The translations under genes were made by a program, and so were the position numbers. From NCBI GenBank assembly GCA_000004985.1, contig GG739094.1: a DNA stretch of 8,049 nucleotides; one strand, written 5' to 3'. This document shows, piece after piece, positions 1 to 8,049 of the stretch; within the stretch, counting starts at the first letter, position 1; each line of letters begins with the position of its first letter. The notes under the pieces are model-generated. The model saw only the letters and a program-made list of their open reading frames with translations. It was not told the DNA's origin and searched no databases. Source of the DNA: Naegleria gruberi. Taxonomy: Eukaryota.

Positions 1-904
1 TGACCAGCATTACCAAAAGACCAATGCAAACAAGTGCCACAATGAAACAAGAAATACCCTTCCAAATATTGTAGAATGGTCTTGTTTGAAAAAAAGCTGC
101 ATTACATTCCTTTTCCCATCCATGTGATTGAGTCAAGTTGAAAATTTGAACCACTTCGAATAGTTGCTCCTCCTTCAGAAATGGAGCCGTGTAAGACTCA
201 TTTCTCGAAAATTTAACAAACTCTTGTAGTCCAGTATTTTTCTTGAACACTATTTGCACAATAGTTTTACCATTCAAACGTGGCAATAGGGTATTATCGA
301 TGTTGAGTTTAGTTGTCAATTGAATAGGATAAAAGGAGTTCAATTGCAAGTCCTGATGGGTTAATTCACTCCTATTAGAATTGAAAATTAAATTCTCCAA
401 TTTAGTAGCTGGTCGACGACACTCTTCAAAATGTGTCTGATTCCTGTAAATGATACACACTGAATACGAATATTCTCCAAACGTATCCAAATTCCTAGGT
501 AAATAGCTAACATGATTGCAGAAAAAGTAATAGGGAACATTAACAAGCATGCCACTAGGAGTAGTTGTTAAAGTTTCTGAAGGTGTGACTGAAGTAAGAA
601 ACGAAATTCCATGACAAATAATAGTCCTATCAATACTTGATGATTTTAGTTGAAATTTCATGTTACTCATCATTGATTGATTAACACCCCCTGAAAGAAT
701 TAAATCCCATTCCACTCGTACAGGTCCAGTCACTAGACAATTATTAAATAAATTCGTAGAAATCCCAGCAGTAGCCTCCACCATCATCACATTTTCCAAC
801 ATTAATAAATTAAATATCCAATAATAACAAATTATATTGACAATAATTCCAGATATTGCTCCTCCCTTTTGATGATGATTATATTTCCTGTTGTTCGTTA
901 TCAT
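1..904 (-). CDS. Hypothetical membrane glycoprotein, 5'-complete and 3'-truncated by the window start. 301 codons are visible, beginning MITNNRKYNHHQKGGAISGIIVNIICYYWIFNLLML... and ending ...NIWKGISCFIVALVCIGLLVMLV before running off at position 1.
   Basis: Hand translation of the minus strand with codons on + coordinates 2-4, 5-7, ... 902-904. There is no + strand tta/cta/tca triplet in this frame from 2 to 966. The first ATG is at 904-902 and an upstream in-frame stop (+ tca) lies at 968-970. Hydrophobic stretches sit at about aa 16-36 and aa 283-301. Between them are five N-x-S/T sequons (NQS, NQT, NRS, NES, NLT) and six Cys. The supplied ORF track does not list it, evidently because it has no stop inside the window. 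No family assignment was possible without a search. Confidence 0.6.
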   Translation of the reverse strand, partial: MITNNRKYNHHQKGGAISGIIVNIICYYWIFNLLMLENVMMVEATAGISTNLFNNCLVTGPVRVEWDLILSGGVNQSMMSNMKFQLKSSSIDRTIICHGISFLTSVTPSETLTTTPSGMLVNVPYYFFCNHVSYLPRNLDTFGEYSYSVCIIYRNQTHFEECRRPATKLENLIFNSNRSELTHQDLQLNSFYPIQLTTKLNIDNTLLPRLNGKTIVQIVFKKNTGLQEFVKFSRNESYTAPFLKEEQLFEVVQIFNLTQSHGWEKECNAAFFQTRPFYNIWKGISCFIVALVCIGLLVMLV

Positions 905-1200: not shown

Positions 1201-1675
1201 TTATAAGAGAGTAGCTCTTTCACCAGAGACACGTTTGTAATTCCTTACAAACATGACAACGGTCACAATGAGTAAGGCAACTGCAAAGATTAAGAAGAGA
1301 GCACATAGGGAAATAATGATACCAAAGAAGGCCTTACCAACTTTCATATCTTCTGAAATCACACAAGTATTCTTTGAGGCATTGTAATCATAACCATCAT
1401 CACAAGCGAATGGACAATTGTTGGTAGTGGATGAGTTGGTGTAGACTGCATTTTCAGCTGGCTTATTAGTACAAGCAGTACAGGAAAGTTGACCTGGGTT
1501 ATATTCACCAATGGCACATGGAATGCAGTTCTTCTTTTCAGCAGAGAAACCAAATCCAGGATTACAGCTGGTCAAGATACAGGTTGGAACATATTTACCA
1601 GTGTTGGTATTACAATTTTGAACACCTTGTCCATTGGTCAAGTTACATGCCTTGGTTTGCCATTTAGCACAAATA
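1201..1675 (-). CDS. C-terminal fragment (157 codons plus stop) of a cysteine-rich single-pass membrane protein. The N-terminal remainder lies in the N-run. The fragment reads ICAKWQTKACNLTNGQGVQNCNTNTGKYVPTCILTSCNPGFGFSAEKKNCIPCAIGEYNPGQLSCTACTNKPAENAVYTNSSTTNNCPFACDDGYDYNASKNTCVISEDMKVGK, then the TM helix AFFGIIISLCALFLIFAVALLIVTVVMFV, then the tail RNYKRVSGERATLL*.
   Basis: The TAA stop is at + 1201-1203 (tta), confirmed by hand. There are 13 Cys in 104 ectodomain residues. C-x2-C-x2-G-x-Y-type modules occur (CIPCAIGEY, CPFACDDGY), the hallmark of furin-like, ephrin-receptor-like (GCC2_GCC3) or growth-factor-receptor Cys-rich repeats. There are three N-x-S/T sequons. A 29-residue hydrophobic helix is followed by a 14-residue charged tail, which reads as a TM segment rather than a GPI signal. 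Codon usage is strongly yeast-optimal (ggt, cca, ttg, caa, acc/act, gct, tgt, aag, ttc, tac). Confidence 0.75.
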
Positions 1676-4600
1676 NNNNNNNNNNNNNNNNNNNNNNNNN
1701 NNNNNNNNNNNNNNNNNNNNNNNNNNNNNNNNNNNNNNNNNNNNNNNNNNNNNNNNNNNNNNNNNNNNNNNNNNNNNNNNNNNNNNNNNNNNNNNNNNNN
1801 NNNNNNNNNNNNNNNNNNNNNNNNNNNNNNNNNNNNNNNNNNNNNNNNNNNNNNNNNNNNNNNNNNNNNNNNNNNNNNNNNNNNNNNNNNNNNNNNNNNN
1901 NNNNNNNNNNNNNNNNNNNNNNNNNNNNNNNNNNNNNNNNNNNNNNNNNNNNNNNNNNNNNNNNNNNNNNNNNNNNNNNNNNNNNNNNNNNNNNNNNNNN
2001 NNNNNNNNNNNNNNNNNNNNNNNNNNNNNNNNNNNNNNNNNNNNNNNNNNNNNNNNNNNNNNNNNNNNNNNNNNNNNNNNNNNNNNNNNNNNNNNNNNNN
2101 NNNNNNNNNNNNNNNNNNNNNNNNNNNNNNNNNNNNNNNNNNNNNNNNNNNNNNNNNNNNNNNNNNNNNNNNNNNNNNNNNNNNNNNNNNNNNNNNNNNN
2201 NNNNNNNNNNNNNNNNNNNNNNNNNNNNNNNNNNNNNNNNNNNNNNNNNNNNNNNNNNNNNNNNNNNNNNNNNNNNNNNNNNNNNNNNNNNNNNNNNNNN
2301 NNNNNNNNNNNNNNNNNNNNNNNNNNNNNNNNNNNNNNNNNNNNNNNNNNNNNNNNNNNNNNNNNNNNNNNNNNNNNNNNNNNNNNNNNNNNNNNNNNNN
2401 NNNNNNNNNNNNNNNNNNNNNNNNNNNNNNNNNNNNNNNNNNNNNNNNNNNNNNNNNNNNNNNNNNNNNNNNNNNNNNNNNNNNNNNNNNNNNNNNNNNN
2501 NNNNNNNNNNNNNNNNNNNNNNNNNNNNNNNNNNNNNNNNNNNNNNNNNNNNNNNNNNNNNNNNNNNNNNNNNNNNNNNNNNNNNNNNNNNNNNNNNNNN
2601 NNNNNNNNNNNNNNNNNNNNNNNNNNNNNNNNNNNNNNNNNNNNNNNNNNNNNNNNNNNNNNNNNNNNNNNNNNNNNNNNNNNNNNNNNNNNNNNNNNNN
2701 NNNNNNNNNNNNNNNNNNNNNNNNNNNNNNNNNNNNNNNNNNNNNNNNNNNNNNNNNNNNNNNNNNNNNNNNNNNNNNNNNNNNNNNNNNNNNNNNNNNN
2801 NNNNNNNNNNNNNNNNNNNNNNNNNNNNNNNNNNNNNNNNNNNNNNNNNNNNNNNNNNNNNNNNNNNNNNNNNNNNNNNNNNNNNNNNNNNNNNNNNNNN
2901 NNNNNNNNNNNNNNNNNNNNNNNNNNNNNNNNNNNNNNNNNNNNNNNNNNNNNNNNNNNNNNNNNNNNNNNNNNNNNNNNNNNNNNNNNNNNNNNNNNNN
3001 NNNNNNNNNNNNNNNNNNNNNNNNNNNNNNNNNNNNNNNNNNNNNNNNNNNNNNNNNNNNNNNNNNNNNNNNNNNNNNNNNNNNNNNNNNNNNNNNNNNN
3101 NNNNNNNNNNNNNNNNNNNNNNNNNNNNNNNNNNNNNNNNNNNNNNNNNNNNNNNNNNNNNNNNNNNNNNNNNNNNNNNNNNNNNNNNNNNNNNNNNNNN
3201 NNNNNNNNNNNNNNNNNNNNNNNNNNNNNNNNNNNNNNNNNNNNNNNNNNNNNNNNNNNNNNNNNNNNNNNNNNNNNNNNNNNNNNNNNNNNNNNNNNNN
3301 NNNNNNNNNNNNNNNNNNNNNNNNNNNNNNNNNNNNNNNNNNNNNNNNNNNNNNNNNNNNNNNNNNNNNNNNNNNNNNNNNNNNNNNNNNNNNNNNNNNN
3401 NNNNNNNNNNNNNNNNNNNNNNNNNNNNNNNNNNNNNNNNNNNNNNNNNNNNNNNNNNNNNNNNNNNNNNNNNNNNNNNNNNNNNNNNNNNNNNNNNNNN
3501 NNNNNNNNNNNNNNNNNNNNNNNNNNNNNNNNNNNNNNNNNNNNNNNNNNNNNNNNNNNNNNNNNNNNNNNNNNNNNNNNNNNNNNNNNNNNNNNNNNNN
3601 NNNNNNNNNNNNNNNNNNNNNNNNNNNNNNNNNNNNNNNNNNNNNNNNNNNNNNNNNNNNNNNNNNNNNNNNNNNNNNNNNNNNNNNNNNNNNNNNNNNN
3701 NNNNNNNNNNNNNNNNNNNNNNNNNNNNNNNNNNNNNNNNNNNNNNNNNNNNNNNNNNNNNNNNNNNNNNNNNNNNNNNNNNNNNNNNNNNNNNNNNNNN
3801 NNNNNNNNNNNNNNNNNNNNNNNNNNNNNNNNNNNNNNNNNNNNNNNNNNNNNNNNNNNNNNNNNNNNNNNNNNNNNNNNNNNNNNNNNNNNNNNNNNNN
3901 NNNNNNNNNNNNNNNNNNNNNNNNNNNNNNNNNNNNNNNNNNNNNNNNNNNNNNNNNNNNNNNNNNNNNNNNNNNNNNNNNNNNNNNNNNNNNNNNNNNN
4001 NNNNNNNNNNNNNNNNNNNNNNNNNNNNNNNNNNNNNNNNNNNNNNNNNNNNNNNNNNNNNNNNNNNNNNNNNNNNNNNNNNNNNNNNNNNNNNNNNNNN
4101 NNNNNNNNNNNNNNNNNNNNNNNNNNNNNNNNNNNNNNNNNNNNNNNNNNNNNNNNNNNNNNNNNNNNNNNNNNNNNNNNNNNNNNNNNNNNNNNNNNNN
4201 NNNNNNNNNNNNNNNNNNNNNNNNNNNNNNNNNNNNNNNNNNNNNNNNNNNNNNNNNNNNNNNNNNNNNNNNNNNNNNNNNNNNNNNNNNNNNNNNNNNN
4301 NNNNNNNNNNNNNNNNNNNNNNNNNNNNNNNNNNNNNNNNNNNNNNNNNNNNNNNNNNNNNNNNNNNNNNNNNNNNNNNNNNNNNNNNNNNNNNNNNNNN
4401 NNNNNNNNNNNNNNNNNNNNNNNNNNNNNNNNNNNNNNNNNNNNNNNNNNNNNNNNNNNNNNNNNNNNNNNNNNNNNNNNNNNNNNNNNNNNNNNNNNNN
4501 NNNNNNNNNNNNNNNNNNNNNNNNNNNNNNNNNNNNNNNNNNNNNNNNNNNNNNNNNNNNNNNNNNNNNNNNNNNNNNNNNNNNNNNNNNNNNNNNNNNN

Positions 4601-6920
4601 NNNNNNNNNNNNNNNNNNNNNNNNNNNNNNNNNNNNNNNNNNNNNNNNNNNNNNNNNNNNNNNNNNNNNNNNNNNNNNNNNNNNNNNNNNNNNNNNNNNN
4701 NNNNNNNNNNNNNNNNNNNNNNNNNNNNNNNNNNNNNNNNNNNNNNNNNNNNNNNNNNNNNNNNNNNNNNNNNNNNNNNNNNNNNNNNNNNNNNNNNNNN
4801 NNNNNNNNNNNNNNNNNNNNNNNNNNNNNNNNNNNNNNNNNNNNNNNNNNNNNNNNNNNNNNNNNNNNNNNNNNNNNNNNNNNNNNNNNNNNNNNNNNNN
4901 NNNNNNNNNNNNNNNNNNNNNNNNNNNNNNNNNNNNNNNNNNNNNNNNNNNNNNNNNNNNNNNNNNNNNNNNNNNNNNNNNNNNNNNNNNNNNNNNNNNN
5001 NNNNNNNNNNNNNNNNNNNNNNNNNNNNNNNNNNNNNNNNNNNNNNNNNNNNNNNNNNNNNNNNNNNNNNNNNNNNNNNNNNNNNNNNNNNNNNNNNNNN
5101 NNNNNNNNNNNNNNNNNNNNNNNNNNNNNNNNNNNNNNNNNNNNNNNNNNNNNNNNNNNNNNNNNNNNNNNNNNNNNNNNNNNNNNNNNNNNNNNNNNNN
5201 NNNNNNNNNNNNNNNNNNNNNNNNNNNNNNNNNNNNNNNNNNNNNNNNNNNNNNNNNNNNNNNNNNNNNNNNNNNNNNNNNNNNNNNNNNNNNNNNNNNN
5301 NNNNNNNNNNNNNNNNNNNNNNNNNNNNNNNNNNNNNNNNNNNNNNNNNNNNNNNNNNNNNNNNNNNNNNNNNNNNNNNNNNNNNNNNNNNNNNNNNNNN
5401 NNNNNNNNNNNNNNNNNNNNNNNNNNNNNNNNNNNNNNNNNNNNNNNNNNNNNNNNNNNNNNNNNNNNNNNNNNNNNNNNNNNNNNNNNNNNNNNNNNNN
5501 NNNNNNNNNNNNNNNNNNNNNNNNNNNNNNNNNNNNNNNNNNNNNNNNNNNNNNNNNNNNNNNNNNNNNNNNNNNNNNNNNNNNNNNNNNNNNNNNNNNN
5601 NNNNNNNNNNNNNNNNNNNNNNNNNNNNNNNNNNNNNNNNNNNNNNNNNNNNNNNNNNNNNNNNNNNNNNNNNNNNNNNNNNNNNNNNNNNNNNNNNNNN
5701 NNNNNNNNNNNNNNNNNNNNNNNNNNNNNNNNNNNNNNNNNNNNNNNNNNNNNNNNNNNNNNNNNNNNNNNNNNNNNNNNNNNNNNNNNNNNNNNNNNNN
5801 NNNNNNNNNNNNNNNNNNNNNNNNNNNNNNNNNNNNNNNNNNNNNNNNNNNNNNNNNNNNNNNNNNNNNNNNNNNNNNNNNNNNNNNNNNNNNNNNNNNN
5901 NNNNNNNNNNNNNNNNNNNNNNNNNNNNNNNNNNNNNNNNNNNNNNNNNNNNNNNNNNNNNNNNNNNNNNNNNNNNNNNNNNNNNNNNNNNNNNNNNNNN
6001 NNNNNNNNNNNNNNNNNNNNNNNNNNNNNNNNNNNNNNNNNNNNNNNNNNNNNNNNNNNNNNNNNNNNNNNNNNNNNNNNNNNNNNNNNNNNNNNNNNNN
6101 NNNNNNNNNNNNNNNNNNNNNNNNNNNNNNNNNNNNNNNNNNNNNNNNNNNNNNNNNNNNNNNNNNNNNNNNNNNNNNNNNNNNNNNNNNNNNNNNNNNN
6201 NNNNNNNNNNNNNNNNNNNNNNNNNNNNNNNNNNNNNNNNNNNNNNNNNNNNNNNNNNNNNNNNNNNNNNNNNNNNNNNNNNNNNNNNNNNNNNNNNNNN
6301 NNNNNNNNNNNNNNNNNNNNNNNNNNNNNNNNNNNNNNNNNNNNNNNNNNNNNNNNNNNNNNNNNNNNNNNNNNNNNNNNNNNNNNNNNNNNNNNNNNNN
6401 NNNNNNNNNNNNNNNNNNNNNNNNNNNNNNNNNNNNNNNNNNNNNNNNNNNNNNNNNNNNNNNNNNNNNNNNNNNNNNNNNNNNNNNNNNNNNNNNNNNN
6501 NNNNNNNNNNNNNNNNNNNNNNNNNNNNNNNNNNNNNNNNNNNNNNNNNNNNNNNNNNNNNNNNNNNNNNNNNNNNNNNNNNNNNNNNNNNNNNNNNNNN
6601 NNNNNNNNNNNNNNNNNNNNNNNNNNNNNNNNNNNNNNNNNNNNNNNNNNNNNNNNNNNNNNNNNNNNNNNNNNNNNNNNNNNNNNNNNNNNNNNNNNNN
6701 NNNNNNNNNNNNNNNNNNNNNNNNNNNNNNNNNNNNNNNNNNNNNNNNNNNNNNNNNNNNNNNNNNNNNNNNNNNNNNNNNNNNNNNNNNNNNNNNNNNN
6801 NNNNNNNNNNNNNNNNNNNNNNNNNNNNNNNNNNNNNNNNNNNNNNNNNNNNNNNNNNNNNNNNNNNNNNNNNNNNNNNNNNNNNNNNNNNNNNNNNNNN
6901 NNNNNNNNNNNNNNNNNNNN
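1676..6920. other. Run of 5245 N: an assembly gap or hard-masked segment. Its content is unknown.
   Basis: Read directly from the sequence. The length is not a round number, so it may reflect an estimated or real span rather than a placeholder. This is inference. Confidence 0.95.
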
Positions 6921-7044: not shown

Positions 7045-8049
7045 ATGGTACCACCAAGAAGCCGTCCATTAGAATCAATATTAACAAGACGAACAAGACG
7101 TTCCACTTGTGAGGCTTTGGAGGCAAATTATGTTAGACCAAACAATAATGCTTACTTCACGGACCAGTATGAGAAAGTTCCGTATGTAGTTAGGTCTGAA
7201 GTAGACACACAAATGTTGAATTGTTGGTTTACTGTTTTCTTTCCTTACTTGCTTTCTCTGTTTTGTAGTACATACACATTTAACCAATTGTTATTAATGT
7301 GGTTGACTAATACAAGACTTGGAAGGTCATTATTGAATCAAGCAATTAATTCAGTAGAAGACAAACATCTCAAAAAGCATTCACAATTAGGTTATACAAT
7401 CAGCAAACGAGCCAAAACAAGGATATCGGTTGTTGCAATGGGTACATCTTGGATTAGGACAGGTATATCTATTGGAAAATATATCAAATTCAAGAAATTC
7501 ATCCATCCATACGATCCAAAAAAAGCTATTCCAAGTGGAGACGACATTAAGGGTTTCTCAGGGAGTATCAGGACTTGGTTAACAAAAACAGCTCCTTTTA
7601 AAATAATTTCAGATACCACCAAATCATATTACACTATTTCTAATGGGGTTGCATTTTTGATGGATGCTGTTAGAGTGTTTGTTAAAGAGAACTTGATAGA
7701 AAATGCGAGCATATTTCTAAAGTATTCTTGGGATTCAAGAATTGCTGTTCAATCAACGCCTACTGTATTGACGGTTTCATTAGCAGGTAATAATATTTCA
7801 ATTGAAAATTGTATTACATTATCTGCTTTCAAAACAAATGAGAAAGTTGCACTTCAACATACAGGAGCATGGAAATGCATGCAAGAAATGTTACGAATGT
7901 CATCTATGCATTTTGAAAATAAGTTATATTCTGTTACTCACATTGTTTCACCTGATTTGTGTGCATTAAGGGCGTCTGTGAATTTACATGAAGTACAGCA
8001 ACCAGTAGAAAGGTGTGGATGTATCAACAAGCTGCATTGGTTTGAAATA
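7045..8049 (+). CDS. Hypothetical protein, 5'-complete and 3'-truncated by the window end. 335 codons are visible: MVPPRSRPLESILTRRTRRSTCEALEANYVRPNNNAYFTDQYEKVPYVVRSEVDTQMLNCWFTVFFPYLLSLFCSTYTFNQLLLMWLTNTRLGRSLLNQAINSVEDKHLKKHSQLGYTISKRAKTRISVVAMGTSWIRTGISIGKYIKFKKFIHPYDPKKAIPSGDDIKGFSGSIRTW...NKLHWFEI.
   Basis: Hand translation of + frame 1. The in-frame TAG at 7039-7041 is followed by the ATG at 7045, and no stop follows through 8049. It has a basic, Arg-rich N-terminus and one predicted TM helix at about aa 58-80 (nt ~7216-7284). Codon usage is non-optimal (aca, agg, ata, cga), as expected for a low-expression yeast gene. Alternative starts are at 7213 and 7297. A possible intron is described in the findings. 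The ORF is absent from the supplied track because it runs off the window. Confidence 0.55.
   Translation, partial: MVPPRSRPLESILTRRTRRSTCEALEANYVRPNNNAYFTDQYEKVPYVVRSEVDTQMLNCWFTVFFPYLLSLFCSTYTFNQLLLMWLTNTRLGRSLLNQAINSVEDKHLKKHSQLGYTISKRAKTRISVVAMGTSWIRTGISIGKYIKFKKFIHPYDPKKAIPSGDDIKGFSGSIRTWLTKTAPFKIISDTTKSYYTISNGVAFLMDAVRVFVKENLIENASIFLKYSWDSRIAVQSTPTVLTVSLAGNNISIENCITLSAFKTNEKVALQHTGAWKCMQEMLRMSSMHFENKLYSVTHIVSPDLCALRASVNLHEVQQPVERCGCINKLHWFEI

Follow-up and report, generated by a model that had tools for sequence, protein, structure and literature searches.

The stretch of DNA analysed here (the window, 8,049 nucleotides of the Naegleria gruberi genome) contains the 3' end of a minus-strand gene that is otherwise hidden under a run of undetermined bases. 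Our analysis predicts that this gene encodes a type I membrane protein in which a CPAF-like S41 peptidase is joined to a disulfide-bonded stalk, a transmembrane (TM) helix and a sorting tail, and we assign this reading a probability of about 80%. By homology and structure modelling, an N-terminal signal peptide is followed by a luminal or extracellular CPAF-like S41 domain of ~600 aa (residues ~30-630). Then comes a 106-aa rod with 12 cysteines, presumably paired in six disulfides, with an EGF-like half followed by an ephrin-receptor-like/TNFR-like half, and finally one TM helix and a 14-residue cytosolic tail. The rod would serve as a rigid stalk and keep the peptidase at a distance from the membrane. 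By analogy with CPAF, the peptidase would be active, with Ser511 as the nucleophile and His125 as the base, and the E-x3-L-L motif of the tail may be a sorting signal for adaptor proteins (AP). The enzyme could thereby cycle between the cell surface and endosomes, or reach lysosomes or phagosomes, in whose lumen it would trim or degrade luminal proteins, for example those of ingested prey.

Identity of the readable gene fragment

The window has a GC content of ~35% and is interrupted at positions 1676-6920 by one continuous run of 5,245 N. The last 157 codons are the sole readable part of the gene (minus strand, 1204-1674, followed by a TAA at 1201-1203), and their translation begins with ICAKWQ and ends in the tail RNYKRVSGERATLL. 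A 1,907-aa minus-strand open reading frame (ORF) was rejected as an artefact that arises when N is translated as X. The features of the gene are as follows.

1201-1203, minus strand: stop codon TAA, the end of the ORF (from the translation)
1204-1245, minus strand: predicted cytoplasmic tail of 14 aa, RNYKRVSGERATLL, with its last six residues, ERATLL, at 1204-1221 (from the translation and ortholog comparison)
1246-1332, minus strand: predicted single TM helix, fragment residues 115-143, AFFGIIISLCALFLIFAVALLIVTVVMFV, followed by basic residues as in the positive-inside pattern (from hydropathy, AlphaFold2 and orthologs)
1333-1362, minus strand: short juxtamembrane linker, VISEDMKVGK, variable among orthologs (from the translation)
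1363-1527, minus strand: Cys-rich sub-module B, fragment residues 50-104, ephrin-receptor-like/TNFR-like
1528-1674, minus strand: Cys-rich sub-module A, fragment residues 1-49, a predicted EGF-like beta-hairpin unit (from its recurrence alone elsewhere, weak Pfam and PDB matches and AlphaFold2)
1676-6920, no strand: run of 5,245 N over the remaining 630 codons (predicted signal peptide and CPAF-like S41 domain) and the rest of the DNA up to the next readable ORF

An exhaustive phmmer search of the 157-aa fragment against 1.84 billion representative proteins returned 97 matches. The top match, P0001 (XP_002668396, "predicted protein, partial [Naegleria gruberi]"), is 100% identical to the fragment over residues 1-142 (E 1.1e-89). 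The 90% cluster of P0001 includes the full-length, 787-aa NAEGRDRAFT_80844 (P0098; XP_002673858, UniProt D2VQ36), and the whole fragment is an exact substring of this protein, at residues 631-787. By sequence identity, then, the readable codons are the C-terminal 20% of N. gruberi NAEGRDRAFT_80844, and since the fragment starts at residue 631, at least 1.9 kb of coding sequence must lie under the N run. The host is accordingly N. gruberi or a strain nearly identical to it, which also disposes of the other sources considered (Trichomonas, Entamoeba, Spironucleus, ciliates and giant viruses). Upstream of the fragment, P0001 has 487 residues, not one of which the readable DNA can encode; the 39 residues unique to its N-terminus are absent from every frame of that DNA. 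Therefore, either the N run is a mask over real sequence or the window represents another copy or assembly. The start of the run lies no more than one codon away from residue 630/631 of the 787-aa protein, where the S41 domain meets the Cys-rich module.

Several other searches with the readable DNA or its translation were negative. A word-indexed protein search found no match for the fragment although the 100% identical 142-residue match sits in the same collection, so that negatives from this search are weak evidence; Cys-rich sequence of low diversity may suit its word index badly. An exact 39-mer of the fragment was found in none of the viral, prokaryotic-genome and metagenome contig collections, and no Rfam family, tRNA or repeat was detected when the readable flanks were scanned.

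Relatives of the 787-aa protein were retrieved from Naegleria lovaniensis (64% identity), a Logan assembly (an ortholog, 63%), Willaertia magna (51%), N. gruberi itself (the paralog NAEGRDRAFT_82227, 46%) and metagenomes (42-45%). Fungal relatives are 21-28% identical over ~73% of the protein, with E values down to 1.5e-40, and are annotated as "tail specific protease domain-containing", "peptidase S41 family protein ustP" or "secondary metabolite-associated S41A peptidase". The architecture is conserved in N. lovaniensis, W. magna, the metagenomic relatives and Capsaspora.

The N. gruberi assembly holds three near-identical models of the gene, on scaffolds of 351,708, 43,517 and 8,124 bp (the group of P0098, P0099, P0001 and P0100), which are probably allelic or haplotig duplicates. 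The model P0099 lacks 19 residues of the TM segment (GKAFFGIIISLCALFLIFA), a gap that looks like a wrongly called intron, and the ENA copy of the protein differs by one Ala-to-Val change within the TM helix.

The ectodomain is predicted to adopt a CPAF-like S41 fold

The residues upstream of the fragment point to a peptidase of family S41. Several family members exceed the Pfam Peptidase_S41 cut-off of 24 bits (P0108, 33.6; P0111, 28.3; P0112, 27.6; P0114, 39.5; P0008, 24.2), and weak matches to the Pfam family PDZ_CPAF_rel occur among them as well. A profile of 26 family members matches Escherichia coli Prc (E 8e-6) over the D-x-R/T-x-N-G-G-G region. When the full 787-aa protein was searched by phmmer against PDB sequences, no match was returned, whereas the profile and fold searches did match. 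The AlphaFold2 model of the 787-aa protein, built on the family alignment, has a mean pLDDT (predicted local distance difference test) of 86.3. Its best fold matches in the PDB are the CPAF structures 3dpm and 3dor (Foldseek E 7.5e-16, template modelling score 0.59 normalised to CPAF), followed by CtpA, CtpB, the D1-processing protease (D1P), Prc and other S41 enzymes, with E values down to ~1e-6. The ectodomain, as modelled, has the S41/CPAF fold.

Conservation over the 26 sequences, which span Heterolobosea, Capsaspora and fungi, is consistent with a catalytic role for this domain. In their alignment, Ser511, Asp373, Asn377, Gly379 and Gly380 are invariant, and His125 is conserved in at least 90% of the sequences. 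Ser511 lies in the motif C-A-S-T-C-A-L-F and is placed by AlphaFold2 at the N-terminus of a helix (512-524) that comes after a strand (501-505). The region around CPAF Ser499, D-F-S-C-A-D-F-F as recovered from PDB sequences, resembles this motif; the CPAF stretch contains a single serine, and the S499A PDB entry scores lower over it. From this likeness, we infer that Ser511 may be the equivalent of the CPAF nucleophile Ser499, whose counterpart in Prc is Ser452.

Chlamydia trachomatis CPAF (CT858; MEROPS S41; PDB 3DOR/3DPM) is the best structural match of the modelled ectodomain. CPAF itself, however, is soluble, a bacterial effector that becomes active through autoprocessing; Cys-rich stalk, TM helix and cytosolic tail are all missing from it, and its sequence is only 12-14% identical to that of the Naegleria protein. 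The nearest sequence relatives outside Heterolobosea and Capsaspora are the CPAF-like S41 peptidases secreted by fungi (Zymoseptoria tritici AvrStb9, ustP, PTHR37049), which have a signal peptide and a CPAF-like fold in common with it (PMC10208482). The fungal branch is represented by AvrStb9, a wheat-pathogen avirulence protein whose authors also found CPAF as the closest structure (PMC10208482). Unlike the Naegleria protein, the fungal proteins are ~620-700 aa long and are described as secreted; they match only its first 73-75% and therefore lack the Cys-rich module, the TM helix and the tail. We also considered whether CPAF had been acquired horizontally from the Chlamydia-like symbionts that amoebae harbour. 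Nothing supports this, as the retrieved proteins closest in sequence are eukaryotic (fungi and Capsaspora).

A counterpart beyond Heterolobosea is the hypothetical 814-aa protein CAOG_04122 of Capsaspora owczarzaki, uncharacterised and 30% identical to the Naegleria protein, in which a Peptidase_S41 domain, a Cys-rich module, a hydrophobic segment and a short basic tail follow one another in the same order. It differs in that its hydrophobic segment is Gly/Ala-rich and falls below the hydropathy threshold used. A metagenomic member of 617 aa on a 2,762-bp contig (P0114) stops right after the S41 domain, with neither Cys-rich module nor TM helix, and is either a secreted variant or truncated at the contig end.

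A composite cysteine-rich module precedes the membrane helix

The motifs to which the earlier note drew attention are present in the translation between fragment residues 50 and 95: CIPCAIGEY at 50-58, CTAC at 65-68 and CPFACDDGY at 87-95. The first 104 residues of the fragment contain 12 Cys (~11.5%), compared with 10 in the 630 residues that come before them in the 787-aa protein. The cysteine pattern is not a product of chance, because all 12 Cys are kept in seven orthologs and paralogs, and 9 of them are each found in 58 or more of the 62 related repeat units taken from other proteins. Sub-module A follows the pattern C-x7-C-x3-N-G-x-G-x3-C-x10-C-x4-C-x2-G-F, and sub-module B the pattern C-x2-C-x2-G-x-Y ... 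C-x2-C-T-N-K-P ... Y-T ... C-x3-C-x2-G-Y ... C. The family consensus reads C-x7-C-x3-N-G-x-G ... C-x4-C ... C-x5-G-x-Y-S ... C-T-N-K-P ... Y-T ... C-x-W-x-C-x2-G-Y ... C.

The two halves behave as separable units. A local hidden Markov model (HMM) of the 106-aa module found 433 instances, sub-module repeats included, in 110 of the retrieved proteins. Module residues 1-52 form tandem arrays of their own, at intervals of ~50 aa (for example in P0012, P0016 and P0017), and residues ~43-105 recur alone with a period of ~55-60 aa (for example in P0006, P0106 and P0028). The complete unit occurs ten times in P0002 and a single time in the N. gruberi 787-aa protein.

Assignment of the module to a repeat class draws on profile, fold and motif comparisons. 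Against Pfam, the fragment scores 18.5 bits with TNFR_ELAPOR1_6th (PF23091; E 0.0019), below the gathering score of 33.2, and 15.6 bits with Ephrin_rec_like/GCC2_GCC3 (PF07699; E 0.015), below the gathering score of 23.1; related proteins score 16.3-20.6 bits against PF07699. Sub-module A has weak Pfam matches to cEGF and CPL1-like. A module profile of 22 sequences, searched against PDB sequences, matches the Chlamydomonas mastigoneme protein Mst1 ("ephrin type A/B receptor-like domain-containing protein", E 3.8e-10), human ELAPOR1 (E 3.3e-6), EphB6, EphA2 and EphB2 (E 2.4e-4 to 1e-3, with EphB6 at 2.4e-4), TNFRSF4 (E 1.1e-3) and, weakly, the EGF domains of factor IX and factor X. AlphaFold2 folds the 106-aa module alone into a string of small beta-hairpins (pLDDT 97.2), for which the best Foldseek matches, EphB2, EphA4, EphB6 and DR5, are weak (E 1.4e-2 to 3e-2). 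Weak scores are expected because the module is an elongated disulfide rod, and the three methods nonetheless agree. Altogether, sequence profiles and, more weakly, the model identify the module as an ephrin-receptor-like/TNFR-like rod with an EGF-like first half. The earlier note had proposed furin-like, ephrin-receptor-like or TNFR-type repeats, and this classification is borne out by the PDB profile and the motif core, with weak agreement from the fold model.

The closest known repeats are the Ephrin_rec_like/GCC2_GCC3 repeats of Mst1 and ELAPOR1, which share the C-x2-C-x2-G-x-Y...C-x2-C core; ELAPOR1, named as endosome/lysosome-associated by its depositors, is likewise a type I protein with such repeats. 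Unlike these repeats, the Naegleria unit is a composite 106-aa module, present once per protein, with an EGF-like first half and a conserved T-N-K-P...Y-T...C-x3-C-x2-G-Y second half. The cysteine-rich domains (CRDs) of the TNFR superfamily and the cysteine-rich region of Eph receptors differ as well: scores against them are weak, and the Naegleria module sits on an enzyme rather than on a signalling domain.

Within sub-module B, Cys53 and Cys65 (on the minus strand, codons at window positions 1516-1518 and 1480-1482, respectively) vary together. Among the 62 units, both are present in 19, both are absent in 40 and one alone is present in 3 (Fisher p 3.6e-13, a value that overstates independence, as units within one protein are related). 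This co-occurrence suggests that Cys53-Cys65 is probably an optional sixth disulfide. Of the two C-x2-C pairs, the first ends in Cys53 and the second begins with Cys65; most of the related repeats lack C-x2-C.

The module is an ordinary, widely distributed extracellular repeat. Besides Naegleria and Willaertia, its named carriers include the cryptophyte Rhodomonas salina, the chrysophyte Chlorochromonas danica, Capsaspora owczarzaki, the annelid Owenia fusiformis and alphaproteobacterial metagenome-assembled genomes (MAGs), and across these carriers it occurs singly or in tandem. The C-x2-C-x2-G-x-Y arrangement is ordinary for this repeat class in protists; given a Naegleria host, a Cys-rich ephrin-receptor-like module beside a TM helix is therefore unremarkable, and the rarity of the repeat in budding yeasts, on which the earlier note had based its interest, is void as a reason. 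In the alphaproteobacterial MAGs, the module lies in very large proteins that are annotated as BspA-family leucine-rich-repeat surface proteins or carry DUF285 (P0036/P0177, P0020/P0163 and P0005). Transfer between domains of life, or eukaryotic contigs binned in error, could explain why a "eukaryotic" disulfide-rich repeat turns up in surface proteins of bacteria.

A single membrane helix is followed by a short tail with a conserved motif

The anchor of the protein is predicted from hydropathy, structure modelling and conservation. Fragment residues 115-143 form a 29-residue hydrophobic segment with a Kyte-Doolittle peak of 3.29 (19-residue window), followed by R-N-Y-K-R, and the TM segment is conserved among orthologs. 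On the scale of the 787-aa protein, hydropathy marks a hydrophobic N-terminus at residues 3-27 and a hydrophobic segment at 740-777, and AlphaFold2 places one continuous helix at 738-778. These features are those of a type I single-pass membrane protein, with a predicted signal peptide, one TM helix near the C-terminus and a basic cytosolic side. All heterolobosean members share the same order of module, short linker, hydrophobic helix, basic residues and a tail of 10-14 residues.

The tails diverge except for one motif. A [DE]xxxL[LIM] pattern lies near the C-terminus in all seven heterolobosean family tails: the window protein has ERATLL, N. lovaniensis and the Logan ortholog have EALRLI, Willaertia has ERRGLI, metagenomic relatives have EHTRLL and ERARLI, and the N. 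gruberi paralog NAEGRDRAFT_82227 has ETMQLM. When the composition of each tail is shuffled, the pattern appears in 0.7-3% of trials; since the tails are homologous, this figure argues for selective retention and is not a probability of independent events. The pattern has the form of an acidic dileucine signal ([DE]xxxL[LI]), which clathrin adaptor complexes recognise; YxxPhi is the other classical type of endocytic motif. The tail of Capsaspora CAOG_04122 ends in YSPI, which is of the YxxPhi type, instead of E-x3-L-L. The conserved E-x3-L-[LIM] motif thus suggests, at the level of sequence, adaptor-mediated endolysosomal sorting of a membrane-tethered S41 protease.

Alternative explanations

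Several observations weigh against the reading of the protein as an active, tail-sorted, membrane-tethered S41 peptidase. The N. gruberi 787-aa protein scores 22.6 bits against Pfam Peptidase_S41 (PF03572; E 8.4e-5), just under the gathering score of 24. The explicit profile alignment of the short region around Ser511 and CPAF Ser499 is non-significant, and their proposed equivalence comes from motif similarity. The S41 domain itself lies under the N run, where it is not readable in the window, and was taken from database proteins that are identical over the readable part. No eukaryotic member of the CPAF-like S41 family has demonstrated enzymatic activity (PMC10208482). In addition, the dileucine reading of the tail is a pattern match in homologous, non-independent sequences.

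Some of these points also favour a receptor or adhesin, in which the Cys-rich rod would bind a ligand as TNFR and Eph CRDs do and the S41-like domain would be an inert binding scaffold. The closest folds of the module are indeed ligand-binding receptor ectodomains, and both the sub-threshold Pfam score of P0098 and the activity record of the eukaryotic family fit such a role. We nevertheless consider a receptor or adhesin improbable: Ser511 and the D-x-T-N-N-G-G-G motif of the oxyanion region are invariant, and His125 nearly so, across very distant members, as expected of an active enzyme, and a single rod module between the enzyme domain and the membrane occupies the position of a stalk. A more serious competitor, though still a minority view, is that the protein is an ectoprotease resident in the plasma membrane, with E-x3-L-L kept for a reason other than endolysosomal sorting, such as export from the endoplasmic reticulum (ER) or lipid contact. 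Type I topology with a signal peptide would put the enzyme outside the cell by default, and motif matches in short tails are error-prone. However, the motif is the only feature kept in otherwise divergent tails, across relatives that are 42-65% identical, its chance frequency given composition is the low one stated above for each tail, and the Capsaspora homolog has the YxxPhi motif YSPI at its C-terminus.

The nature of the anchor and the host were questioned in the same way. A glycosylphosphatidylinositol (GPI) attachment signal in place of the TM helix would agree with the closeness of the hydrophobic segment to the C-terminus, and many Cys-rich surface proteins of protists are GPI-anchored. 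GPI signals, however, end in the hydrophobic stretch, and here 14 more residues come after the 29 hydrophobic ones, a hydrophilic tail that includes four basic residues and the conserved motif, which makes GPI attachment very unlikely. Hydropathy and AlphaFold2 instead uphold the view of the earlier note that the protein has a TM helix, not a GPI anchor, and a very short cytoplasmic tail. That note had further taken the host for a budding yeast and the product for a large, Cys-rich type I surface protein, expressed at a high level and carrying repeats of a class uncommon in Saccharomycotina. Such a reading could appeal to the GC content of ~35% and to a codon preference (TTG, CCA, GGT, CAA, GAA, AGA, TGT) that resembles Candida or Saccharomyces, yet it can be set aside with near certainty. 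The fragment is 100% identical to proteins of N. gruberi, a heterolobosean amoeboflagellate, and has orthologs in N. lovaniensis and W. magna; a protist host is what the note itself had named as its refutation, and the HMMER search returned one. The full-length product is a 787-aa predicted S41 peptidase with one 106-aa Cys-rich stalk module, so the description "large Cys-rich protein" falls too. As for the codons, a bias relative to the flanking ORFs does exist, but the use of optimal codons is not "almost exclusive": the S. cerevisiae "optimal" set, the wrong reference for an N. gruberi host, accounts for 69% of fragment codons versus 45-46% in the two flanking ORFs (Fisher p 1.9e-7). The inference of high expression from yeast-optimal codons has no basis in N. 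gruberi.

Neighbouring ORFs

Two further ORFs flank the gene. The left one, on the minus strand (window positions 1-802), has at least 267 codons from an ATG at 802, runs off the left end and stops at the window edge within the hydrophobic segment GISCFIVALVCIGLLVMLV; searches against Pfam, PHROG and PDB sequences gave no match for it. The right one, on the plus strand (7045-8049), opens with an ATG at 7045 and is still open at the right end, after at least 335 codons. Pfam, PHROG and PDB gave no match, and neither did the word-indexed search, whose negative is weak given that it also missed the 100% match of the fragment; an ORF of its length is unlikely to arise by chance in DNA of 35% GC. 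The PHROGs scan gave nothing relevant.

Implications for Naegleria and the S41 family

Public databases already list the gene product as a hypothetical protein, and neither domain class is new, such that their fusion and the conserved tail motif amount to a small new annotation. Our literature searches found nothing for the gene identifiers, no paper linking Naegleria to CPAF or to tail-specific proteases, and none on a Naegleria S41 protein or a membrane-anchored S41 architecture. For the family of Naegleria and Willaertia "hypothetical proteins", the analysis supplies a functional annotation, that of a membrane-anchored CPAF-like S41 peptidase with a disulfide stalk.

We also put forward, as a tentative generalization, that Heterolobosea and (independently or ancestrally) Capsaspora possess an undescribed class of membrane-tethered CPAF-like S41 serine proteases, which would be sorted by their tails (E-x3-L-L or YxxPhi) to the endolysosomal or phagosomal system and act there on ingested bacteria or luminal proteins. 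If this proves true, it would be the first case of a eukaryotic S41 protease anchored in the membrane. The pathogen Naegleria fowleri is likely to have an ortholog. If sorting by the tail holds and extends to that species, an unstudied membrane protease would join the candidate factors of phagocytic feeding or pathogenicity.

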